A stretch of 64,000 nt of DNA from Spirochaetia bacterium (lineage in GTDB: Bacteria; Spirochaetota; Spirochaetia; UBA9216), in assembly GCA_963675665.1 (NCBI GenBank), contig OY776510.1, positions 3,744,001 to 3,808,000 on the forward strand. The letters are read 5' to 3'. Shown here piece by piece: positions 11,158-33,584 of this stretch. The notes under the pieces were generated by a model. It did not search any database and was not told the DNA's origin. It saw only the letters and a program-made list of their open reading frames with translations. Each line of letters starts with the position of its first letter. The first letter of the stretch is position 1. The translations under genes and the position numbers were made by a program.

Positions 11158-11253
11158 CTCCTATTTTTTCCGCCATGGATGGCGGTATGTATTTGAGTAA
11201 GTTTGCTTAAGCAAACTTCAGATTTAAAAATTACATGGAAGTAATTTTTAAAT
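11158..11253 (-). repeat. Three-hairpin intergenic element (diverged relative of 20695-20802)
   Basis: Minus strand: ATTTAAAAATTAC-TTCCAT-GTAATTTTTAAAT, then AAGTTTGCTTAAGCAAACTT, then CCGCCAT-CC-ATGGCGG, then ATAGGAG (xylA SD). Same order, loops and spacing as 20695-20802. Confidence 0.75.
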
Positions 11254-12741
11254 AAACTTTGGTTTTAGCAGTTCAAGATACTGCTTGTACTCGTCATATA
11301 CTTGTTCGTATTCCTTAACCGAGGATGGATCAGGAAAAACGGTTTCTTCCTCTCTCAGCCTTATATGCTTATCCGTAATGTCCGACAGTTCCGAATGACT
11401 CTCCTCGGAATTCTTCAAAGCCCATAATGCCTGAAGCGCGGCGCCCAGCGCGGCAGCCTCTTCTTCAACAAGGGTAACAACCTTTGCGTTTAATGCATCC
11501 GCCGTGATTTTCCGCCACAGCGCGCTTTTTGCTCCGCCGCCGATAAGTCGAACCTCATTTGTTTTCACTCCAAGAGCTGCAAGCGACTCAAATCCAAGCT
11601 TCAAACCGAAAACAGCAGACTCCATTGAAGCGCGCATGATATTGGCTTCGGTCACATTATTCATGTTCATACCGGCAATTACGGCACGTCCGTTCGGAAG
11701 GCTGGGAGTCCTCTCGCCGCTGAAATACGGAAGCATAATTATTCCGCCTGCGCCGGGACCCGCAGATTCGGCTTTGGCATTGAGTTCGTCAAGCGGCATC
11801 TCAAACAGCGCCCGCATCTGCTCGGTCGCCACGGTACAGTTCATTGTACAAAGAAGCGGCAGCCAGCCGCCTGTGGATGAACAGAAAGCCGCAAGGTTTC
11901 CTTCCGGATCAATCAACGGATTGTCTCCGTATACATAGATTGTGCCTGATGTTCCGAGGCTCATCGTCAAAACGCCTTCCTGAACAGCACCTGTTCCCAC
12001 CGCACCCATCATGTTATCGCCGCCGCCGGTTGAAACGGGGATGCCTTCAGGTATCCCGAAATACGACGCTGCTTTTTGCGTAACGAAACCTGCCAGATCA
12101 TCAGCGTCCTTCAGTTCAGGAAGGCATGACAGCAAATCCCTGTCGGGATCAATTGCCCTTAGCACGTCTTTTGACCAGCAACGTTTTCGAACATCCAGAA
12201 AAGCCGTTCCCGAGGCATCGCCGTATTCAGCCGTATATTCGCCGGTCAGAATAAAGTTCATATAGTCATGCGGAAGCATGATATGAGCAAGCCTGGCATA
12301 AAGTTCAGGTTTGTTCTTTTTAAGCCAGAGCACTTTCGGCGCCGTGTATCCCGGCAGTACTTTGTTACCGGCTTTCTCAATAAGTTCAGCCTCGCCGCCG
12401 AACCGTTCCGTTATTTCCCTGCATTCCGCCGCCGTTGAAACATCATTCCACAGCTTGGCATTGTAAAGAGGTTTTCCGTCGGAGTCCGCCGGCACAAAAC
12501 CATGCTGCTGCCCGGAAACCCCGACAGCCCTTATCGTCTTTCTGATGCCTGGTTCAATTGAATCCGAACATATCTTTGCGGCTTCTATCCACCATTCAGC
12601 TTTCTGCTCGCTTGTTCCGTCAGCTTTTGTAATGATATCAAGCTTCTGCTGGGCCGTAGCTACTGTTTTCTTCGATTCGTAATCATAAACAAGGAACTTG
12701 ATGCTTTGAGTTCCCATATCGATTCCAAGAACCGTATTCAT
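11248..12741 (-). CDS. xylB: Xylulokinase (FGGY family)
   Basis: LGIDMGT, SGQQHG, GGGDN, SLGTSG, PYFSGERTP and GGGAKS motifs; adjacent to xylA. Start set at MNTVLG, after a GGGGG SD. Confidence 0.92.
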   Translation of the reverse strand: MNTVLGIDMGTQSIKFLVYDYESKKTVATAQQKLDIITKADGTSEQKAEWWIEAAKICSDSIEPGIRKTIRAVGVSGQQHGFVPADSDGKPLYNAKLWNDVSTAAECREITERFGGEAELIEKAGNKVLPGYTAPKVLWLKKNKPELYARLAHIMLPHDYMNFILTGEYTAEYGDASGTAFLDVRKRCWSKDVLRAIDPDRDLLSCLPELKDADDLAGFVTQKAASYFGIPEGIPVSTGGGDNMMGAVGTGAVQEGVLTMSLGTSGTIYVYGDNPLIDPEGNLAAFCSSTGGWLPLLCTMNCTVATEQMRALFEMPLDELNAKAESAGPGAGGIIMLPYFSGERTPSLPNGRAVIAGMNMNNVTEANIMRASMESAVFGLKLGFESLAALGVKTNEVRLIGGGAKSALWRKITADALNAKVVTLVEEEAAALGAALQALWALKNSEESHSELSDITDKHIRLREEETVFPDPSSVKEYEQVYDEYKQYLELLKPKFI

Positions 12742-14352: not shown

Positions 14353-14424
14353 GCCAGAATAGCTCAGCGGTAGAGCAGCTCACTCGTAATGAGCAGGTCT
14401 GGGGTTCAATTCCCCATTCTGGCT
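14353..14424 (+). tRNA. tRNA-Thr(CGT)
   Basis: Cloverleaf: acceptor GCCAGAA/TTCTGGC, D arm GCTC/GAGC, anticodon arm GCTCA-CTCGTAA-TGAGC, T arm TGGGG-TTCAATT-CCCCA; CCA not encoded. Confidence 0.95.
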
Positions 14425-17903: not shown

Positions 17904-20717
17904 TTGAAGATTAAAAGTTTAATTTATTTGATAACAGGTATTTTTATATTTACCATACTCACCTCCTGCCCTTCTCCGCTTGAACCTGAAAAGCTTGCTT
18001 TGCTTAAGGATCTTGAAGCACCCAGGATTGTCATTACATCTCCGGCCGACTACAGCGAATACGCCACAGTTATCGAGCTTGAAGGCTATATTGAAGATAC
18101 ATCTCTTGCAAACCTGCCGGCCGACAGCGGGCTATCCGTTTCATACAGCATTCCCGGAACAAGCATCAACGGGACTGTTGATGTTAGTCTTCCCGACGGT
18201 TCTTTTTCGGGAATCATTAATGTGGCCGCGCTCAGCGGAGAAAAGGTGATTGAATTCAGCACTACTGATATAAACGGAAATTCAGCTTCTGCGTCTGTAA
18301 ATATTCTCAAACCTGAAGGTGGAGATATCTCCGGATTCACAGTCACGCCCGGCAACAGACAGGTAACAATATGCTGGGCCCCTGTTTCCGGCGCAGAGTC
18401 ATATTCGATATTTGAGTCGTCATACGGAGAGACTATAGAACCCGGAGAGATAACCGGAACAAGCTATACCTGGACCGGTCTTGAAAACGGCGAGATATAC
18501 AGCTTTCAGCTTACCGCGCACCTGCCCGTCGGAATCGGTGAAGATGCGTATTCCTCGACGGCTACAACAATGCCGCTTTCTCCCTTTAACCTCACTCCGG
18601 TGATAAAGAATACCGAACATAAAGCAATAACCATTGAATGGCCTGCTAATGATAATATCGACCGGTTCATCGTTGAACGCAGCGGCAGCCATCTCGGTCC
18701 ATGGGAAATAAAAAGGGTACTGACTCAAAATGTATTTACCGACGAAAAAGTTGAATACGATACTAACTACTATTACAGGATTACTCCTTCCGGCTTTACA
18801 GAGATAAACAGCCTCTGCGCCGGGAGCAGCCCCACCAGGTTCTCAGGTGACGATATCATCGCTACTTTGCCGTTGCCGGGCTCAATCACGCCCTTCTCGC
18901 TGCAAATCGATGATAACTATGCCTATATTGCAAACTTCAGAGACGGTTTAGCGATTGCTGATATATCGGACCCATACAATCCGATTATTGTTTCAAGTTA
19001 CGGCGTGGCTTCCACAGTGGAGATACGGGACATTTTCGTGAGAGACCGTATTGCATATCTTGCCGGTTATGACGACGGCCTTCTTCTTGTCGACATATCC
19101 GATATTGACAACCCCGTACTTCTATCCTCATGCAGCACACCCGGCAACGCGTTGGGAGTATATGTTTCCGGCGATTATGCGTATATAGCCGATGATTCTG
19201 AAAGAATATCTATCGTCGACATCTCAACCCCGGCTTCGGTAACAGACAGCTCATTGATATCCGGCTGCAGCACCGACGGGATTGCGGACAAAGTCCTTGT
19301 AAAGAACGGTTACGCCTATGTGGCTGCCGACGGGCTGGAGGTAATTGATGTATCCAATCCTCCGCTTGTAAATGATCTTTCAACAAAGGGAAGCTGGAGC
19401 AGCCTGGACGGAAAAATAAGCAAGGATATATACATCTCCGGTGAATATCTGTATATAGTGCTTCAACCCCCGCCTCCCGGCATTCCCCCGGGTCCGAGTT
19501 CCCTGCATATAATCGATATTTCAGTCCCTGCGAATGTAACGAACTCATCCGGTGTCGGCAGCTGTGAAATCTTAGGAAACGCGGAAGGCGTTACAGTATC
19601 CGGAAATCTCGCATACGTAGCATCATATGACGCCGATTTGCAGGTAATCGATGTATTTAATCCGGCAGCGCCGGTATTGGAAAGGACATACGCCACCTCC
19701 GGCGACCCGTTTGATGTAAAGGTTTCCGGTTATTACGCATATATCGCAGATCGCTACGGCAGCGGCCTCGTTGTATTGGATCTTGCAAAGCCCGGATCAC
19801 CTTCAATTGTTTCCGCTTCTGCGGACATGTACCGGACAAGCGATATAGAAATATTCGACGAATATGCCTATATTGCCGACGGCACTGACGGGTTAAAGAT
19901 TATGGATATATCCGAACCGGAAGAGATCTCACCGGCCTCCAATATTATTGAGTTTTCTCTCCCCGGCGAATGTCTTGAAATTAATATCCGCTATCCCTAT
20001 GCTTTTATAGCGGCACAGGGCTCAGGGCTTGTTGTCGTAAATATTGCTGATCCGCTTCATCCGTCCCTGCTTAGCAGCACTGAAACAACCCAGAATGCTA
20101 AGGATTTATATGTGCTGGGAAATTATGCATATGTTACGGACAGCGGATGCAGTCTTGAAATAATCGACATCACATTTCCGGAAACTCCTTCCATAGTTTC
20201 CACATGCGACACCGACGGGACTGTAAGCGGCATCACCGTATCCGGTGATTACGCATATATTTGCGCCGGAGGAAGCGGGCTTCAAATCATAGATATCTCC
20301 GATCCGCTCAGTCCGTATATTGCCGCATCCTGTACAAGCGCGGGAGGGGCGAGAAAAGCTGAAATCATCGGCAATTACGCCGTTGTCTCTTCAAATAGCG
20401 CAGGATTATATATTATTGATATTTCCGACCCGTCCGGAGTTACAAACACATCTATTGTAGCCAGCCATCCCGTAACAGGTCACGGATACAGCCTTGCAAT
20501 TGCCGGCGATTTTGTCTATGTCGGCGGAGACGAACGTTTCACGGTTGTGGATATAACCGACCCCGAATCTCCCTCAACCTTTTCCGGCTGCGCGCTGCCG
20601 ACACTCGGTATCGGCTACGGAATTGCCGTCGCAGACTCATACGCCTACATTGCAGACATTAATAGCGGACTTCAGATAATAAACCTCTTAGGAGGAATGA
20701 TAAAAAGTCCTCCATGA
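17904..20717 (+). CDS. Surface lipoprotein with Ig/Fn3 domains and LVIVD repeats (beta-propeller)
   Basis: TTG start; lipobox ILTSC; Fn3-like segments; many YAYIAD..GL.IIDISDP repeats. The last residues (GMIKSPP) come from the inserted element. Confidence 0.85.
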   Translation: MKIKSLIYLITGIFIFTILTSCPSPLEPEKLALLKDLEAPRIVITSPADYSEYATVIELEGYIEDTSLANLPADSGLSVSYSIPGTSINGTVDVSLPDGSFSGIINVAALSGEKVIEFSTTDINGNSASASVNILKPEGGDISGFTVTPGNRQVTICWAPVSGAESYSIFESSYGETIEPGEITGTSYTWTGLENGEIYSFQLTAHLPVGIGEDAYSSTATTMPLSPFNLTPVIKNTEHKAITIEWPANDNIDRFIVERSGSHLGPWEIKRVLTQNVFTDEKVEYDTNYYYRITPSGFTEINSLCAGSSPTRFSGDDIIATLPLPGSITPFSLQIDDNYAYIANFRDGLAIADISDPYNPIIVSSYGVASTVEIRDIFVRDRIAYLAGYDDGLLLVDISDIDNPVLLSSCSTPGNALGVYVSGDYAYIADDSERISIVDISTPASVTDSSLISGCSTDGIADKVLVKNGYAYVAADGLEVIDVSNPPLVNDLSTKGSWSSLDGKISKDIYISGEYLYIVLQPPPPGIPPGPSSLHIIDISVPANVTNSSGVGSCEILGNAEGVTVSGNLAYVASYDADLQVIDVFNPAAPVLERTYATSGDPFDVKVSGYYAYIADRYGSGLVVLDLAKPGSPSIVSASADMYRTSDIEIFDEYAYIADGTDGLKIMDISEPEEISPASNIIEFSLPGECLEINIRYPYAFIAAQGSGLVVVNIADPLHPSLLSSTETTQNAKDLYVLGNYAYVTDSGCSLEIIDITFPETPSIVSTCDTDGTVSGITVSGDYAYICAGGSGLQIIDISDPLSPYIAASCTSAGGARKAEIIGNYAVVSSNSAGLYIIDISDPSGVTNTSIVASHPVTGHGYSLAIAGDFVYVGGDERFTVVDITDPESPSTFSGCALPTLGIGYGIAVADSYAYIADINSGLQIINLLGGMIKSPP

Positions 20718-20802
20718 CTTTTTATCATTTTGAAGTTTACAAACTTTGTTTGAAAACTTCACTATTCATTACCTGCATCCATGCAGGAATTTCTTATAGG
20801 AG
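20695..20802 (+). mobile_element. 108-bp non-autonomous three-hairpin element sharing ends with the IS110
   Basis: First 15 nt are identical to the IS left end (GAATGATAAAAAGTC); ends in TTATAGGAG like the IS right end; flanked by TAGGAG. Hairpins at 20696-20729, 20731-20761 and 20772-20787. Confidence 0.75.
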
Positions 20803-20827
20803 GAATGATAAAAAGTCTTCATGAGCT

Positions 20828-20980
20828 GGTGAATTGATATACTGCCTTAACTTTAATTGAGGCAGTAAGGTTACTGTTCGACATTTTTACTGGTCCGCGA
20901 GACCGTTTAGGAGATTGAAGAGCCGTAACCGAAACATTCAATGGTCTGCGAGACCGGATAGGAGAATGGAACAATTCACC
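20828..20980 (+). ncRNA. Putative bridge RNA of IS110 copy 1
   Basis: Closing stem GGTGAATTG/CAATTCACC; 5' hairpin TACTGCCT..AGGCAGTA; two similar modules (GGTC-yGCGA-GACC..TAGGAG) whose flanks match the target and donor sequences. Confidence 0.75.
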
Positions 20981-21015
20981 GTATAGGCACTGCTTCAAAC
21001 TATTGGAGATAGAAC

Positions 21016-22128
21016 ATGAAGATGAGTATTGGCGTGGATCTTCACAAAACGCAGTTTACAGTATGCCTTTTAAGTGAAGACCGAAAAATTGATCAATTGG
21101 GAATGTATCCGACCAGCGGAAATGGTTATGGAGCATTTCTGAAAATGCTGGATGAATATTGTGAAGAGGAATATGAGTTGAGAGCAGCGGTGGAAACAAC
21201 CGGGAATGCCCGTTATTTCCGCAATAAACTGTTAAAGGCTGGAGTCGAAGTGGTTGTAGTGAATACTTTGAAATTCAAGGTAGTGAATGAATCTGTAAAA
21301 AAGACAGACAAACATGATGCACGCACCCTGGCGGAGTTTCTTGAGAAAGACATGCTGCCTGAATCGATATTATGTTCCCAAGAGAGTGAGGATATTCGAA
21401 GGGTGCTGAAATCCAGGTCGATACTGGTAAAATCTGTTGTGTCGTTAAAGAACCAGGTGCATGGCTTATTACTTGGTTATGGAATAGAGACCAAACGCGG
21501 ACAGCTGCAGAGTAAAAAAGAAAGGCAGCGAATCCTGAACGGTCTCGAGGACCACGACTTTTACGGAAGCGCTGCCAAAACGGTAATACCGTTACTGGAT
21601 ATGATAGATAATCAGGCATCGCAAGTCAAGCAGCTTGAAAAGGTTTTGGCTGAGCTTGTGGAGGACGATGAAGATGTTGAGCTTCTGCAGACAATACCAG
21701 GCGTGGGTCTAATAACAGCAGCAACAGTAAGAGCCTATACAGACGATATCGGCAGATATGATAGTGCGAAGAAATATGCAGCAAACGCCGGGCTTGTGCC
21801 ATGGGTGCAGAACTCAAATATGACAATACATCATGGACATATAACAAAGCGTGGGCCTGTAGAACTGAGGACAGCCTTCGTACAGATGGTGATGGGAATG
21901 GTTCGTATGCAAAAGAAGACCGGGACGTACCGAATAATGACGAAGTATGCAGCGATGAAGAAGCAGAAAGGCTCGGGTAAGAGTGTAATAGCTGCCGCCC
22001 GCAAGATGAGCACTTTGGTATATACAATTTTAAAAACCAGAGAGCCGTTTGATCCGATGAAAATGGCTTTTAGAAAAGAATACAGGGAAATGCAGGCAGC
22101 AGCATGGGAAGCTGTAATGGTCGGTTGA
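21016..22128 (+). CDS. IS110-family DEDD recombinase/transposase
   Basis: GVDLHK, VETTG and KTDKHDA (DEDD) motifs; LQTIPGVG and AGLVP..QNS in the C-terminal Transposase_20 region. Confidence 0.95.
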   Translation: MKMSIGVDLHKTQFTVCLLSEDRKIDQLGMYPTSGNGYGAFLKMLDEYCEEEYELRAAVETTGNARYFRNKLLKAGVEVVVVNTLKFKVVNESVKKTDKHDARTLAEFLEKDMLPESILCSQESEDIRRVLKSRSILVKSVVSLKNQVHGLLLGYGIETKRGQLQSKKERQRILNGLEDHDFYGSAAKTVIPLLDMIDNQASQVKQLEKVLAELVEDDEDVELLQTIPGVGLITAATVRAYTDDIGRYDSAKKYAANAGLVPWVQNSNMTIHHGHITKRGPVELRTAFVQMVMGMVRMQKKTGTYRIMTKYAAMKKQKGSGKSVIAAARKMSTLVYTILKTREPFDPMKMAFRKEYREMQAAAWEAVMVG

Positions 22129-22191
22129 TATCCGACTAGATCATAAGCTTATATTTTTAGCTTGTGGTTGACTTTTTATAGGAGAATAAAT

Positions 22192-24381
22192 ATGAAAAAA
22201 GGATTTCAAACAATAAAAACAATACTTTTTGCGGGACTCATCCTGCTACTGACTACCCTGCTTCCCCTCACTGCATTCTCCCAAAGCGGGGAAGTCGATT
22301 TAAACGAATATTACGCCTACCCGGTTTCCGCCGGGGCTTATTATCATCAGCTTTCGGGGCTGGGCAACAAAGCCCTTGCCGACTTCAGCATAAATGAGAT
22401 TTCCAGCGAAGCGCGCGTGCCGATTCCCGGTATTCCCGTACTGCAGCCGCTTGTCAGGGCCGGATACCTTAGCTACGGTTTTACCGGCAGCGTTGAAGAA
22501 CTGCACCAGGACTGGACACATTTTCATGTCTTCGGCGGGCCGGGCGTTGCCTACTGTTCCCGTATATCACGCGAATTCGAAATCGGCGCTGATCTTTTCG
22601 GGGCGCTGACACAGTCATATTTTACGGAACTGGTTTTCAACGGCGTCCAGGAAACACAGGGGCAATTGAATATACTGGCAGGACTGTCGGGGCGTCTTGC
22701 CTTGAATCCGTCCTATAATTTTTCCATATCGGTTAACCCGGCGCTGAATTACCTGTACGGGCTCGGCCCGCTGCATGATTACGACGGATTTACGTTCGGG
22801 GTCGGCTTTTCGGGTACATACCGCTTCGGACAGGACCCCGACGCGGCGCAGTCTTCAATAAAGGCGATACGTTTCGACGATGTTGATCTGCCTCCGCTGT
22901 TTGCCGCGATGCAGAGTTACTATGTAAAAAACCCGGCGGGAACGCTGACAATTTCCAACAAGGAAAAATACACGCTTGAAGGCGTCTCCCTGTCATTTAT
23001 GCAGCCGGGATTCATGGATTCGCCGAGCCCTATGGCGTCGGATATTGTTCTTGAGCCGGGCGAGAGTATAGAGGTCCCCATCACCCTGACTTTTAATAAC
23101 GAGGTTTTTTCAACCCAGGGGGTCACCCCGCTTACAGGCGAAATAATCGCAGGTTATACCGTACGCGGGCGCGAGGTTGAGCAGAGACAGTCGGTTACCT
23201 ACGATCTGCATGATCGCAACGCCCTTACGTGGGACGACGACCGGAAGGCCGCCGCATTTATTACAGCCCAGGACAGCGCCGTCCGCAACTATTCAAGCTA
23301 TATCCGCCAGATTCACCGCGACGCGGTCAGACCTTATATCAGCAGCAACCTTCAGTTTGCCATGCAGGTATTCAACGCCCTCGGCGAACTGGGCATTCTG
23401 TACCAGATTGATCCGACCGCTCCGTTTACCGAGGTCCAGGGCGACACCTTCGTCGTCGACTCAATCAGCCTGCCCCGCGAAACGCTAAAACGGCTGACCG
23501 GCGACTGCGACGATCTTACAGTACTTTTCTGCACAATGCTTGAATCAATCGGCATCGAATCCGCGCTGGTTACCGTTCCGGGACATATCTTCTGCGCTTT
23601 CAACACCGATGTTGAGTCTTCGGACTACATGATGATAAACCCCGACCGCAACCAGATAATCGAAGTTGACGGCAACATCTGGATACCGGTTGAAATTACA
23701 ATGATAGGAAAACACAGCTTTACGGAAGCCTGGAACAAGGGATACTCGGAATTCGCGGAATGGGACGCCGAACCCGACCGCAGGGGTTTTTATAAAACCG
23801 GCGATGCACAGGGCATATTCCGGCCTGTAGTCCTGCGCGAAACCGATCTTGGGCTTCAGTACGGAGACGATGAGGCGGTTGTTTCGGCATTTGAAAAGGA
23901 CCTTGATTCCCTGTCGCAGTCAATCTTAAAACCTGCCAAAGCCGACGCTGAGGCAAAAGGCACCCCGAAAGCCTGGAATTCCTACGGGGTAGCCGCGGCA
24001 AAACTCGGCGCGTACGGCACTGCGGAAACCGCCTTTGACAAGGCCGTAAAATCAAAACCCGATTACACAAGCGCCAAGCTGAACCTCGGCTCACTGTATT
24101 ACATAATGGAAAAATATTCAGATGCGTTTAAAGTTTACCAGAATATCGAACAGAATGCCGCAAACCTGAATATTTCCGACCGTACCATGTTCAATCTTTA
24201 CCTTAACATGAGCAAAACAAGCTATGCTCTTGAGAAAAATGACGAGGCTGATTCCTATTTCCGCAAAGCCACTCAGCTTGACGCTGATAAAGCCGCCGAT
24301 TTCGCCTACCTCGGCACAGGCGGTACAGGTGTCGCAAGAGCTGCCGAGGCTGCTGACAGTAAGATATCGTTTTTTGAATAG
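22192..24381 (+). CDS. Exported protein with beta-rich N-terminus, Ig-like region, transglutaminase-like domain and TPRs
   Basis: Signal peptide from MKKGFQ (ATG 22192, after the IS-supplied SD); GDCDD...VPGHIF Cys/His motif; C-terminal TPR helices. Confidence 0.75.
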   Translation: MKKGFQTIKTILFAGLILLLTTLLPLTAFSQSGEVDLNEYYAYPVSAGAYYHQLSGLGNKALADFSINEISSEARVPIPGIPVLQPLVRAGYLSYGFTGSVEELHQDWTHFHVFGGPGVAYCSRISREFEIGADLFGALTQSYFTELVFNGVQETQGQLNILAGLSGRLALNPSYNFSISVNPALNYLYGLGPLHDYDGFTFGVGFSGTYRFGQDPDAAQSSIKAIRFDDVDLPPLFAAMQSYYVKNPAGTLTISNKEKYTLEGVSLSFMQPGFMDSPSPMASDIVLEPGESIEVPITLTFNNEVFSTQGVTPLTGEIIAGYTVRGREVEQRQSVTYDLHDRNALTWDDDRKAAAFITAQDSAVRNYSSYIRQIHRDAVRPYISSNLQFAMQVFNALGELGILYQIDPTAPFTEVQGDTFVVDSISLPRETLKRLTGDCDDLTVLFCTMLESIGIESALVTVPGHIFCAFNTDVESSDYMMINPDRNQIIEVDGNIWIPVEITMIGKHSFTEAWNKGYSEFAEWDAEPDRRGFYKTGDAQGIFRPVVLRETDLGLQYGDDEAVVSAFEKDLDSLSQSILKPAKADAEAKGTPKAWNSYGVAAAKLGAYGTAETAFDKAVKSKPDYTSAKLNLGSLYYIMEKYSDAFKVYQNIEQNAANLNISDRTMFNLYLNMSKTSYALEKNDEADSYFRKATQLDADKAADFAYLGTGGTGVARAAEAADSKISFFE

Positions 24382-29852: not shown

Positions 29853-29914
29853 CTTAATCTCCTATAAAAAGTCAACCACAAGCTAAAAATATAAGCTTAT
29901 GATCTGGTCGGATA

Positions 29915-31027
29915 TCAACCGACCATTACAGCTTCCCATGCTGCTGCCTGCATTTCCCTGTATTCTTTTCTAAAAGCCATTTTCATCGGATCAAACGGCT
30001 CTCTGGTTTTTAAAATTGTATATACCAAAGTGCTCATCTTGCGGGCGGCAGCTATTACACTCTTACCCGAGCCTTTCTGCTTCTTCATCGCTGCATACTT
30101 CGTCATTATTCGGTACGTCCCGGTCTTCTTTTGCATACGAACCATTCCCATCACCATCTGTACGAAGGCTGTCCTCAGTTCTACAGGCCCACGCTTTGTT
30201 ATATGTCCATGATGTATTGTCATATTTGAGTTCTGCACCCATGGCACAAGCCCGGCGTTTGCTGCATATTTCTTCGCACTATCATATCTGCCGATATCGT
30301 CTGTATAGGCTCTTACTGTTGCTGCTGTTATTAGACCCACGCCTGGTATTGTCTGCAGAAGCTCAACATCTTCATCGTCCTCCACAAGCTCAGCCAAAAC
30401 CTTTTCAAGCTGCTTGACTTGCGATGCCTGATTATCTATCATATCCAGTAACGGTATTACCGTTTTGGCAGCGCTTCCGTAAAAGTCGTGGTCCTCGAGA
30501 CCGTTCAGGATTCGCTGCCTTTCTTTTTTACTCTGCAGCTGTCCGCGTTTGGTCTCTATTCCATAACCAAGTAATAAGCCATGCACCTGGTTCTTTAACG
30601 ACACAACAGATTTTACCAGTATCGACCTGGATTTCAGCACCCTTCGAATATCCTCACTCTCTTGGGAACATAATATCGATTCAGGCAGCATGTCTTTCTC
30701 AAGAAACTCCGCCAGGGTGCGTGCATCATGTTTGTCTGTCTTTTTTACAGATTCATTCACTACCTTGAATTTCAAAGTATTCACTACAACCACTTCGACT
30801 CCAGCCTTTAACAGTTTATTGCGGAAATAACGGGCATTCCCGGTTGTTTCCACCGCTGCTCTCAACTCATATTCCTCTTCACAATATTCATCCAGCATTT
30901 TCAGAAATGCTCCATAACCATTTCCGCTGGTCGGATACATTCCCAATTGATCAATTTTTCGGTCTTCACTTAAAAGGCATACTGTAAACTGCGTTTTGTG
31001 AAGATCCACGCCAATACTCATCTTCAT
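29915..31027 (-). CDS. IS110-family DEDD recombinase/transposase
   Basis: Translation identical to 21016-22128. Confidence 0.95.
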   Translation of the reverse strand: MKMSIGVDLHKTQFTVCLLSEDRKIDQLGMYPTSGNGYGAFLKMLDEYCEEEYELRAAVETTGNARYFRNKLLKAGVEVVVVNTLKFKVVNESVKKTDKHDARTLAEFLEKDMLPESILCSQESEDIRRVLKSRSILVKSVVSLKNQVHGLLLGYGIETKRGQLQSKKERQRILNGLEDHDFYGSAAKTVIPLLDMIDNQASQVKQLEKVLAELVEDDEDVELLQTIPGVGLITAATVRAYTDDIGRYDSAKKYAANAGLVPWVQNSNMTIHHGHITKRGPVELRTAFVQMVMGMVRMQKKTGTYRIMTKYAAMKKQKGSGKSVIAAARKMSTLVYTILKTREPFDPMKMAFRKEYREMQAAAWEAVMVG

Positions 31028-31062
31028 GTTCTATCTCCAATAGTTTGAAGCAGTGCCTATAC

Positions 31063-31215
31063 GGTGAATTGTTCCATTCTCCTATCCGGTCTCGCAGACC
31101 ATTGAATGTTTCGGTTACGGCTCTTCAATCTCCTAAACGGTCTCGCGGACCAGTAAAAATGTCGAACAGTAACCTTACTGCCTCAATTAAAGTTAAGGCA
31201 GTATATCAATTCACC
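31063..31215 (-). ncRNA. Putative bridge RNA of IS110 copy 2
   Basis: Reverse complement of 20828-20980. Confidence 0.75.
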
Positions 31216-33584
31216 AGCTCATGAAGACTTTTTATCATTCCTCCTATAAAATACAGGCGCGAACCGAAGTCTCCTACAAGCCTCGTTTTTTCGGTGTAGC
31301 CCGTTCCGGTGAATTGATGGTAAGGTCTTATTCCAGCGAACATCAGTTCGTCGCCGAAAGCTTCAAATTCCTCTACCTCGTTTTCCAACATATAGTTATT
31401 GCTGATAACAGTGTGAAGAATACCGTCGGCCTTCAGCTTTATCGGGCTGATATGATTTACCAGATTACCGAATGCACGGATATTCACATACTGTCTTCTT
31501 GTTATAACTTTATACATCATATCCGGTTCAAGGCCAACAGTTTTAAGCTGCTCAAAACCTCCGTTTGGTTTCTGCAGAATCTGGTAATAACCGAGAACGG
31601 CATTTTTTTTATCTTTGCTTACAGTAATCCATAACGGCTGGTTATCTGAAAACGGAGATTTTAACCGGTAAAAATCTCCGTACTGAAAGAGGCTGCGCCG
31701 GCTTTTATAGTCGGTTATCTGCTGTTTTATTGTTTTCTTTTCAAAATTGGAAAGTTTCGTCAGATCCAGTTCATAGCCCAGAAGACCGAAAGCTGCAACA
31801 TTGAATCTTGTCTCAAGAGGCGTATTACGCAGTACCTGATGCGAAGGCGCGGCGCTTACGTGCGCCCCCATTACCGACGGCGGGTATACCATTGAAGTAC
31901 CGTACTGAATACTGATTCTTTCAACCGCGTCGGTATTGTCGCTTGTCCAGGTCTGGGGCATATAGTACAGCATTCCGAGATCAAAGCGGTTTCCGCCGCT
32001 CGCGCATGATTCAAAAAGGATATCGGGAAACTCATTTTTAAGCTTGTCCAGAAGCCGGTAGAGCCCAAGAACATACCTGTGCGCCTGCTCTTTCTGACGT
32101 TCCGCCGGCAGGATGTTTGAATAGAGGTCCGAAAGGTTCCGGTTGCAGTCCCATTTCACATACTGCAGACCTGCCCTCCTGAAAAGATTTGACAGAACTT
32201 CATACATATAATCAATTACATCCGGGTTTGCGTAATCAAGCATCAGCTGGAAACGCCCTTCCGAAGCGGGTCGTTCCGGTGTTTTTATAGCCCAGTCGGG
32301 ATGCGCCCGGTACAGTTCGCTGTCGGCATTGACCATCTCTGGTTCAACCCAGAGGCCGAATTTCAAACCTTTAGCATGAAGTTTTCTGCCAAGTCTTTCC
32401 AGACCACCTGGAAGCTTCTTCCTGTTTTCATACCAGTCGCCGAGGCTTGAATGATCATCATCACGCTTTCCGAACCAGCCGTCATCAAGAACAAACAGCT
32501 CGATACCGAGTTTTACTGCTTCATCGGCAAGCTTGAGCAGTTTACTTTCGTTAAAATCGAAATATGTCGCTTCCCAGTTATTTATAAGGACAGGCCTGTC
32601 CTTATACTGCCAGGCCGGGTTTACAATATTATTATTAATCAGCTCGTGAAAATTCCTGCTCATCCCGTTTAATCCTGAATCTGAATAAGTCAGAATCGCT
32701 TCGGGTGTTTGAAATGATTCACCGGGGACGAGTTGCCAGCTGAAATCGAAAGGATTAATCCCCATCTGGATCCTTGTAAACGAATGAGGATTTACTTCAG
32801 CAAGACCGATATGATTACCTGAATAAACAAGCGAAAAACCGTAGCATTCACCTGCATTCTCGGTGGTATCGGCTCTCTTTAAACAAAAAAACGGGTTATG
32901 ATTAGCGCTGCTCACGCCTTTTTTTGAATCTATATAGAAAATACCCTCTGAAAGTTTCCGGGTATTTATATGGCGTTCGCTTATCCATTTCCCGTCAAGG
33001 GTAAGCAGCTCAAAACCGGATTCACTGAAATCAAGATTAAAACTCATCAGCTTCTCTATGGACACCGGGAGATTCCCGCTGTTTACAAGCTTCGAACTTC
33101 GTGTAATAACATTACGCTCATAATACACGGTATAGCTGAGCACCAGAATCAGGTTGGCGTATGTGTCTTCAAGAGTTATTTCCAGCGTCTCAACATTATC
33201 GTTGTTTCTGAACGCATGCGGCATATCCTGAAGCTTGTTTTCGCCTTCATAGATTCTGTGGCTTTTATAAATGAAATCACAAACCCTGGTTCCGTTGCTG
33301 AAATTGATTTCCGTAAACGGTTCGCGGTAATCACCCTTGCCGTACGCCGGGGCTTCCAGGCAGGCGGCATCAAGACTGAAGTGTCCTGTTTCCGTACTGT
33401 AGCATGTTGAACTGCCCGTCCACAGGCTGAACGACTGGTGCATATTATTGTATGAACTTTTTTCCCGTATTCTTTTTCCGAAATACAGATTAACAGGATG
33501 GCCCGAGTCAAGGATTCTTATGATATAACTTGTATTCTCTGTAGAAAGATGGAAATCTGATTTGTTATTCCTGATTTTTATCAT
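31206..33584 (-). CDS. Alpha-galactosidase (GH36)
   Basis: INNWEATYFDF, LFVLDDGWFG, FGLWVEPEM, YVKWDCN, ESCASGG and WTSDNTD motifs. The last residues (GMIKSLHELVN) come from the IS left end. Confidence 0.93.
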   Translation of the reverse strand: MIKIRNNKSDFHLSTENTSYIIRILDSGHPVNLYFGKRIREKSSYNNMHQSFSLWTGSSTCYSTETGHFSLDAACLEAPAYGKGDYREPFTEINFSNGTRVCDFIYKSHRIYEGENKLQDMPHAFRNNDNVETLEITLEDTYANLILVLSYTVYYERNVITRSSKLVNSGNLPVSIEKLMSFNLDFSESGFELLTLDGKWISERHINTRKLSEGIFYIDSKKGVSSANHNPFFCLKRADTTENAGECYGFSLVYSGNHIGLAEVNPHSFTRIQMGINPFDFSWQLVPGESFQTPEAILTYSDSGLNGMSRNFHELINNNIVNPAWQYKDRPVLINNWEATYFDFNESKLLKLADEAVKLGIELFVLDDGWFGKRDDDHSSLGDWYENRKKLPGGLERLGRKLHAKGLKFGLWVEPEMVNADSELYRAHPDWAIKTPERPASEGRFQLMLDYANPDVIDYMYEVLSNLFRRAGLQYVKWDCNRNLSDLYSNILPAERQKEQAHRYVLGLYRLLDKLKNEFPDILFESCASGGNRFDLGMLYYMPQTWTSDNTDAVERISIQYGTSMVYPPSVMGAHVSAAPSHQVLRNTPLETRFNVAAFGLLGYELDLTKLSNFEKKTIKQQITDYKSRRSLFQYGDFYRLKSPFSDNQPLWITVSKDKKNAVLGYYQILQKPNGGFEQLKTVGLEPDMMYKVITRRQYVNIRAFGNLVNHISPIKLKADGILHTVISNNYMLENEVEEFEAFGDELMFAGIRPYHQFTGTGYTEKTRLVGDFGSRLYFIGGMIKSLHELVN

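Follow-up and report, generated by a model that had tools for sequence, protein, structure and literature searches.

A TD-2/TD-1-type repeat between xylB and xylA of an uncultured spirochaete, aimed at Shine-Dalgarno junctions and possibly dependent on an IS110-family element

Introduction

The junction between xylB and xylA in an uncultured spirochaete contains a three-hairpin element that, judged from its sequence, is an old and slightly worn copy of a 100-115-nt non-coding repeat, matching the Rfam family TD-2 on the reverse strand and lying in a TD-1-like orientation. We regard it as very likely that the element belongs to the TD-2/TD-1 family and that this family is mobile DNA aimed at Shine-Dalgarno (SD) junctions. 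The repeat lands in one orientation, between the upstream stop codon and the SD of the next gene. It may well be a miniature element dependent on an IS110-family insertion sequence (IS), its engine an IS110/IS1111-type DEDD recombinase with a guide RNA, both acting in trans.

According to Weinberg 2007 (PMC1950547), TD-1 (28 copies) and TD-2 (36 copies) occur in Treponema denticola only and are of unknown function; some TD-1 copies overlap reverse complements of TD-2, and TD-1 is usually found 5' of genes. No other paper naming either motif turned up in the literature searched, and since 2007 both have been carried as candidate structured RNAs with no assigned function. The family is known, and its link to an IS110 mechanism appears to be new; the window analysed here, a 64,000-nt stretch of contig OY776510.1, offers a mechanism that can be tested.

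Results

Anatomy of the element between xylB and xylA

Both genes lie on the minus strand of the window. The xylB product matches the FGGY kinase domain. The product of 'xylA' has 447 aa and a TIM-barrel match only, below threshold (28.7 bits vs 31.1); its name follows the preliminary description of this DNA and a presumed likeness to the N-termini of xylose isomerases. That description had drawn three hairpins between the two genes, and the gene strand indeed folds in this way, with a minimum free energy of -30.8 kcal/mol vs -12.9 +/- 3.0 in 200 shuffles (z -6.0; 0/200 as good). The opposite strand gives a z of -4.45.

On the gene strand, hairpin 1 (11222..11253) has a 13-bp stem and the loop TTCCAT. 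The xylB gene ends ..AAG TTT ATT TAA, its last codon and stop (TAA, 11250-11248) falling within the 5' arm of this hairpin, and the SD-like left end usual in the family is missing. Three nucleotides on lies hairpin 2 (11199..11218, 8 bp, arms AAGTTTGC/GCAAACTT), with the conserved base GAAGTTTG/CAAACTT and a short apex, a part whose length varies in other copies. Hairpin 3 (11170..11185) follows after 13 nt and reads CCGCCATCCATGGCGG, a G+C-rich stem CCGCC/GGCGG enclosing ATCCAT. The remaining stretch, 11158..11169, consists of the tail AAAAAAT and the xylA SD AGGAG (11162-11158), and the xylA ATG is at 11151-11149. The boundary between natural presence and absence of the element falls between this tail and AGGAG. 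The copy now provides the stop codon of xylB and stands 5' of an unchanged xylA SD.

A second copy of the same layout, which the preliminary description had used as its point of comparison, is present on the plus strand at 20690..20802. Its stem sequences are different and its ends canonical, running from AGGAGG and AATGATAAAA on the left through three hairpins and a tail to AGGAG on the right.

Assignment to the TD-2/TD-1 family

The Rfam TD-2 model (RF03162) matches the xylB-xylA copy at 11169..11257 on the plus strand with 51.1 bits, above the curated gathering cut-off of 48.7, and the twin at 20695-20788 on the minus strand with 44.7 bits, below it; at both sites the model strand is opposite to the flanking genes. 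Rfam membership at a score of 48.7 bits or more thus extends to the first copy and stops short of the second. TD-2 alone is listed at each site, in a listing that gives the best overlapping match per clan. A reading of the element as a new family was therefore rejected in favour of TD-2, with TD-1 as its reverse-strand relative. Elsewhere in the window, Rfam also identified a tRNA gene (RF00005, 70.6 bits) at 14353-14424 on the plus strand.

Across the family, the left end is often AGGAGG followed by AATGATAAAA, and hairpin 1 has 12-16 bp and the loop YTCCRTG. Hairpin 2 has the conserved base TTGAAGTTTG/CAAACTTCA and a variable apex, sometimes with nested extra modules; after a spacer of about 12 nt comes hairpin 3, with a G+C-rich stem of 4-9 bp enclosing TCCATG. 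The 3' part is a tail AAnTTTTTAT, then the AGGAG and ATG of the gene. Read on the opposite (Rfam model) strand, both conserved loops are CAYGGAW, in which GGA is presented in a hairpin loop. Such a GGA would be reminiscent of CsrA-type binding sites.

Copies with one to three nested modules (TAAACTGC..GCAGTTTA) in the apex of hairpin 2 form a sub-family, represented in the host genome (G000) at C1:738790-738954, 894798-894946, 1454618-1454766 and 4930030-4930176; they are the most alike of the unlinked copies, at up to 92.5% identity. A mini-ORF that would start at the left-end ATG and end at the TAG in the right SD was considered and rejected: its ATG is separated from the SD-like motif by just 1-2 nt, and the frame is open in some copies and meets a stop inside hairpin 2 in others, such as 4968479 (by eye).

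Copy number and position

At least 42 TD-2 model matches were found in the 5.15-Mb genome, at least 18 of them above the cut-off, among the 150 of 681 candidates that were scored. A gene-sense profile built from 24 copies (nhmmer) gave 125 matches at E<=1; those with E<1e-4 and at least 60 model positions make up the set of 79 copies used here, and the genome total is at least 79. With further copies in congeners, the structured element family proposed in the preliminary description is borne out.

Its proposal that such elements land at coupled stop/SD junctions also holds. The next gene is co-oriented in 77 of the 79 copies by a crude ORF-based gene caller, and the other two likewise have an SD and an ORF in sense. 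An SD and the first codon of an ORF that is 60 aa or longer lie within a few bases of the copy end in 61/79; the remaining 18 are followed by another copy (9), the IS described below (5) or something else (4). Upstream, by the same crude ORF calls, the gene is co-oriented in 65/79, and its stop codon is at or inside the copy edge in 32/79.

Head-to-tail arrays of 5, 3, 2 and 2 units occur in the host genome at C1:1652336-1652899, 2973061-2973375, 836239-836464 and 4576535-4576751, respectively, and the junction orthologous to that at 2163401 holds three units in the congener G004 vs one in G000. The tail-to-head joint in arrays reads TTTTATAGGAGGAATGATAAAA.

The family is also present in related genomes. 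TD-2 matches were found in 5/5 congeners (3-19 each) and in 1/5 other genomes of the taxonomic family, and BLAST found dozens of repeat pieces in the congeners G004 and G005. In the species-genome collection, 20 stretches match the canonical left end and loop pattern, all from records of uncultured Treponemataceae or Spirochaetales or from Spirochaeta MAGs.

In orientation and position the copies agree with TD-1, a motif in sense and 5' of genes that has two hairpins in common with the TD-2 reverse complement. They do not behave as the free-standing sRNA that TD-2 could be in Weinberg 2007: on the model strand, each copy runs antisense to the start region next to it. An sRNA gene encoded opposite to the genes, with CAYGGAW loops that could sponge a GGA-binding protein such as CsrA, would suit the Rfam type of TD-2, which is sRNA, the strand that the model matches, and the suggestion of a non-coding RNA in Weinberg 2007 (PMC1950547). 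An sRNA gene would have no need, however, to lie exactly antisense to a translation start region in all copies. Around the xyl copy, moreover, promoter-like sites number 0 vs 1.0 expected, the terminator-like match is at chance (1 vs 0.6), and the fold is no better on the model strand. We consider an sRNA gene here highly improbable.

Pairing is kept on both strands

With all but one of the 61 full-length copies aligned by MAFFT (60 copies), RNAalifold recovered hairpins 1 and 2, with double changes in 16 of 17 pairs. Over those pairs, 95.8% of 998 cells were paired vs 77.1% in shuffles, so that the preliminary observation on two copies, that stems differ and pairing is kept, holds family-wide. 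Cells changed on both sides numbered 151 vs 36 in shuffles; none of 500 shuffles reached any of the covariation measures, and slid controls were 36-49% paired. Hairpin 3 was misaligned by MAFFT and was therefore scored copy by copy, giving 351/358 Watson-Crick pairs in the set of 61. For the 5' part, each copy was represented by the best hairpin within its first 85 nt (hairpin 1 for 54 copies, hairpin 2 for the other 7), and 819 of 842 pairs were Watson-Crick. At 5 junctions that G000 shares with G004, out of 9 G004 stretches compared, the orthologous copies likewise differ by compensatory double changes, such as AGATAAG/CTTATCT vs AAAAAAG/CTTTTTT and GGAC/GTCC vs GAAC/GTTC.

Wobble pairs are nearly missing from these stems. 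G-U is as rare as A-C (five of each among the 842 pairs of the first-hairpin scan; two G-U and one A-C among the 358 of hairpin 3), and the folds of the sense and antisense strands are equally stable (-40.34 vs -40.42 kcal/mol in 60 copies; Wilcoxon p about 1). Pairing is thus kept, and nothing here marks either strand as the important one. The scarcity of wobble pairs fits a constraint or correction at the level of DNA at least as well as one at the level of RNA. Thus, of the 'selection for shape' put forward in the preliminary description, the part that stands is that pairing is kept through many double changes; the pattern is strand-symmetric and nearly free of G-U, and a DNA-level constraint fits it no less well. 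Taken from sequence alone, stems that pair perfectly and strand-symmetrically beneath conserved, asymmetric loops suggest a structure formed by single-stranded nucleic acid and recognised by some factor.

Several of these properties could be those of a mainly cis-acting mRNA element, co-transcribed in 5' leaders or from one cistron to the next, in which the hairpins would protect the upstream message or be processed, the A/U-rich tail and SD would form an insulated ribosome-binding site for the next gene, and spread would be secondary; in some copies hairpin 3 and a T run would also attenuate transcription. Strict sense orientation, a fixed distance to the SD, very stable folds and strong covariation, including the double changes between orthologous copies, would all be expected of it, as would the usual position of TD-1 5' of genes (Weinberg 2007, PMC1950547), and a run of four or more T follows hairpin 3 in about 28/61 copies (hand count). 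Selection on one RNA strand should nevertheless leave an asymmetry, and G-U pairs are no commoner than A-C and sense folds no more stable than antisense ones. The downstream genes are functionally unrelated (22 examined, 19 of them with Pfam families, including metK, malic enzyme, ferredoxins, P-II and an ABC binding protein), and some copies decay, namely the xyl copy in G003 and 4758470-4758580 in G000. An intrinsic terminator was rejected for the xyl copy, whose tail, AAAAAAT, holds no T run and whose gene strand yielded no site in the terminator scan. A primarily cis-acting role seems unlikely to us.

Filled and empty sites

Relatives lacking the roughly 90 bp at the xylB-xylA junction were sought and found. 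In contigs of two sequencing runs of one sample, X4 and X5, position 11254 is joined to 11162 with five other letters, giving AAGTTT GTATA AGGAGATTAATATG; the element is absent, and xylB ends ..KPKFV* with its TAA overlapping the SD. The flanks of this empty site are 94-98% identical to those of the window, with 34/563 differences on the xylA side and 10/647 on the xylB side, an unevenness that hints at recombination with a breakpoint at the junction without the element. The element is also absent from G004, G008 and G010, in which 12-22 nt separate stop and start. G002 has a different, 70-nt spacer, and G003 has a decayed copy that is about 42 nt shorter and misses the SD-like left end. Given this decayed copy at the same site in the more distant G003, the empty site of the close strain may be a secondary loss or an imported allele.

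Deletion of the element on paper had led the preliminary description to an ancestral xylB ending in ..KFIGD*. The arithmetic is right, but the natural empty sites end otherwise, with KPKFV* in X4 and X5 and KPKFQ*, KPKFE* or KPKFL* in other species; since xylB ends KPKF-x-stop everywhere, ..KFIGD* is ruled out.

Other copies are also polymorphic. The copy at 4968477 is absent from 5/5 congeners, that at 857796, 5' of metK, from G001, G003 and G004, the three of five congeners that hold the locus, and that at 2904329 from G002, G003 and G004. In the reverse case, G003 has a copy where G000 is empty (GCGTAA AA CGGAG AAAAAA ATG), and the odd CGGAG is retained to the right of the insert. The metK site reads GCAATCTAAGGAG-CAAAATT-ATG when empty and has TAAGGAG on both sides of the insert when filled, and the 2904329 site likewise has TTGGAG on both sides; each of these motifs occurs once in its empty sites.

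The insert always lies between the SD and whatever precedes the SD. Because an SD is left 3' of the repeat, the ribosome-binding site of the downstream gene is preserved; on the 5' side, canonical copies have an additional orphan SD-like AGGAGG, then AATGATAAAA. The same odd SD variant flanks both sides of two of three lineage-specific insertions. As for a general target-site duplication, the SD cores on the two sides of full-length copies, compared in 61 of them, have no clear overall match. Insertion may duplicate 6-7 bp or exchange a short core.

An IS110-family element with the same ends, target and orientation

Directly at the 3' end of the twin copy lies an IS110-family IS (20803..22184, plus strand), with the right end ..GACTTTTTATAGGAG and the ATG of the next gene at 22192. 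Its transposase (21016-22128, plus strand) is a 370-aa DEDD ORF matching PF01548 and PF02371, and is preceded by a left non-coding end of 213 nt. A second copy, at 29883..31223 on the minus strand (coordinates of the BLAST match to 20820-22160), is also at an SD. The genome holds 15 copies, two in the window and 13 more, that are 99.9-100% identical. In all 15, ..AGGAG borders an IS that begins GAATGATAAAAAGTCTTCATGA and ends ..GACTTTTTATAGGAG, and the ATG of a gene follows 5-7 nt on; the same ends of the IS can be given as GAATGATAAAAAGTCTTCATGAGC, after ..AGGAG, on the left and GGTTGACTTTTTATAGGAG on the right. The IS therefore shares with the repeat its target and orientation, 5' of an SD and in sense (15/15). 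It carries a T-rich tail and SD of its own, its right end supplying TTTTTATAGGAG.

The two are also alike at their ends. The left end of the IS agrees with repeat 5' ends at 22/23 bases with one gap, in a match that runs into the loop, and its right end agrees with the repeat tail over about 14-15 bases; in two of these alignments, 2/9 and 2/8 rows were uninformative, the wrong end having been taken. The repeat has two features expected of an IS110-dependent miniature element, namely IS-like termini on both sides and the target and orientation of the IS. Only the termini are in common, and nothing in the IS corresponds to hairpins 2 and 3. The preliminary description had connected the xylB-xylA junction to the empty site of the second IS copy by a shared sequence. 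What they share is the SD region ATAGGAGATTAA and nothing beyond. A connection to the IS target does exist, and it is broader than that description had it, taking in ends, target and orientation.

G028 is a genome from the same class and a different family. It contains a 71%-identical IS whose ends are the same and which lies directly at the SD of a xylA homologue (L062, C18:1-2962). Because the G028 genome has 0 TD-2 matches, these termini evidently belong to the IS lineage.

The left non-coding end of the IS folds well (z -4.6) into two near-identical small hairpins, each followed by a segment containing AGGAG. Compared by eye between the two IS, the second segment is conserved, like the ends, and the first differs, like the targets, a pattern that fits a candidate guide RNA; this guide assignment is itself a by-eye reading of one predicted fold. 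The position of AGGAG-like segments 3' of both small hairpins has no simple fit to the guide rule of IS621, in which the 5' side pairs with the bottom strand (PMC11208160). When the IS ends are joined head to tail, TTGACT, 17 nt and TAAAAA form a promoter-like sequence across the circle junction (by eye).

Related systems offer precedents for movement in trans. A 22-bp donor is enough if the bridge RNA comes from elsewhere (PMC11208160), transposase and non-coding region provided in trans allow mini-IS to move (PMC11187229), and MITEPpu9 has been tied to the IS110-family ISPpu9 (PMC12288879). No IS110 member aimed at SDs or ribosome-binding sites was found in the literature searched; natural-target lists in supplements could include SD types.

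A second IS110-family element of the host genome has a 387-aa transposase, a length of about 1.54 kb and seven full copies (C1:2621193-2622735 and six more, such as 553730-555272). One of these interrupts hairpin 1 of a repeat copy, and several lie beside a different palindromic repeat (GGGGACTTCTAAAAACTGCAG..).

The association could also be that of a landing pad. In such an account the repeat is a REP-like host or selfish repeat with an unknown engine of its own, and the IS110 element uses its tail, as well as ordinary SDs, to insert. IS110-family elements are known to target repeated palindromes (PMC11208160), and a stem-loop 5' of the ISPpu10 target acts as a specificity gate (bioRxiv 10.64898/2026.03.19.712850). 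Five of the 15 IS copies lie directly 3' of a repeat copy, with hairpin 3 about 10 nt 5' of the insertion point, and one or two more follow degenerate copies (by eye); compared with the IS, the repeat is both older and found more widely across the genus, and the second IS110-family element has entered hairpin 1 of one copy. A landing pad leaves unexplained, though, why the left end of the IS equals the repeat 5' end through the stem into the loop, and why an IS relative has the same ends in a genome without TD-2 matches. The other 10/15 IS copies are at SDs with no nhmmer-detected repeat copy in front, and G000 has no Y1/RAYT transposase. We judge this account improbable, to about the same degree as a cis-acting mRNA element.

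Two more specific classes were rejected. A REP/REPIN with a RAYT partner is at odds with 0 matches to PF01797 in G000, in a search whose control was positive in 6/14 known genomes. A classical MITE is contradicted by an interior unlike that of the IS, by an inverted repeat that is only short and sub-terminal (ATAAAAA..TTTTTAT) and by flank duplication that is inconsistent across copies.

Discussion

How the repeat might move

If the repeat depends on the IS, the recombinase and guide RNA of the IS would act in trans on its two IS-like termini, which, head to tail, would form a donor junction of TTTTTATAGGAG joined to GAATGATAAAA. The hairpins would persist through a need for single-stranded pairing, as a DNA-level recombination substrate or gate; alternatively, they would make the insert harmless inside a polycistronic mRNA. 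We lean toward a role in recombination, with harmless passage through mRNA as a side requirement.

Extended to the known motifs, this suggests that TD-1 and TD-2 are not RNA genes and are instead miniature passengers of an IS110/IS1111-type recombinase, directed by a guide RNA set to the ribosome-binding site; we hold this broader claim to be plausible, if somewhat short of probable. The IS and its passengers would insert at SDs of the type TTTATAGG followed by AG, between these two parts, and would bring a replacement SD, so that the downstream gene survives. A start region of the TTTATAGGAG type would be one such target. Passengers would regenerate the target at their own 3' end, hence the tandem arrays, and their single-stranded hairpins would be needed in the recombination substrate.

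Several observations speak against the IS as the engine. One is that the repeat is older and spread more widely in the genus than the IS: the cognate IS is in none of the five congeners that carry the repeat, and a Pfam search for IS110 found none in the draft assemblies G001, G002, G003 and G005 and, in G004, one with unrelated ends. The repeat copies are old, the best unlinked pair being 92.5% identical and the median 66%, and the IS copies are at least 99.9% identical, which means that no fresh repeat copies accompany the IS burst. Under cut-and-paste transposition, however, identical pairs are not expected, which makes the age argument weak either way. Others are that the predicted SD-like left end is missing both at xylB-xylA and from the decayed copy of G003, that hairpins 2 and 3 are not represented in the IS, and that left and right SD cores do not generally match across full-length copies.

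If an IS110-dependent origin is correct, the system would be a natural RNA-guided recombinase set to a universal, short and functional motif, and the spare SD that it brings along would make insertions at ribosome-binding sites tolerable. Strong covariation in repeat families could then reflect a DNA-level constraint and not RNA. For annotation, TD-2-type repeats supply stop codons and occupy operon junctions, as at xylB.

Comparison with known systems

Correia, ERIC and BOX elements are small structured repeats that also lie inside operons and can alter mRNA stability or expression; to our knowledge, none of them targets or re-supplies an SD, and none is linked to an IS110-type recombinase. 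REP/BIME sequences, the targets of IS621 and ISPpu10, resemble the repeat as dispersed intergenic palindromes that serve as landing sites for IS110-family elements. Most REPs are found 3' of genes, and they occur in either orientation. They are tied to Y1 RAYT transposases, of which G000 has none, whereas the repeat described here is strictly oriented and abuts the SD.

The closest match in form is to TD-1 and TD-2 of T. denticola, which share with the repeat the three-hairpin layout, conserved loops, covarying stems and many copies per spirochaete genome. The original description is confined to T. denticola and presents both motifs as candidate RNAs, whereas the host here is an uncultured Treponemataceae lineage in which every copy runs antisense to the TD-2 model. 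Here there is also insertion polymorphism and a partner IS, neither of which Weinberg 2007 (PMC1950547) describes.

MITEPpu9 and ISPpu9 of Pseudomonas putida offer a parallel in mechanism, a short non-coding element with IS110-like left and right ends for which a transposase acting in trans has been proposed. As reported (PMC12288879), MITEPpu9 contains an sRNA gene, has REP targets and is present in 8 copies; the repeat described here, in contrast, has about 80 old copies, SDs as targets and about 23 + 15 terminal bases in common with its IS.
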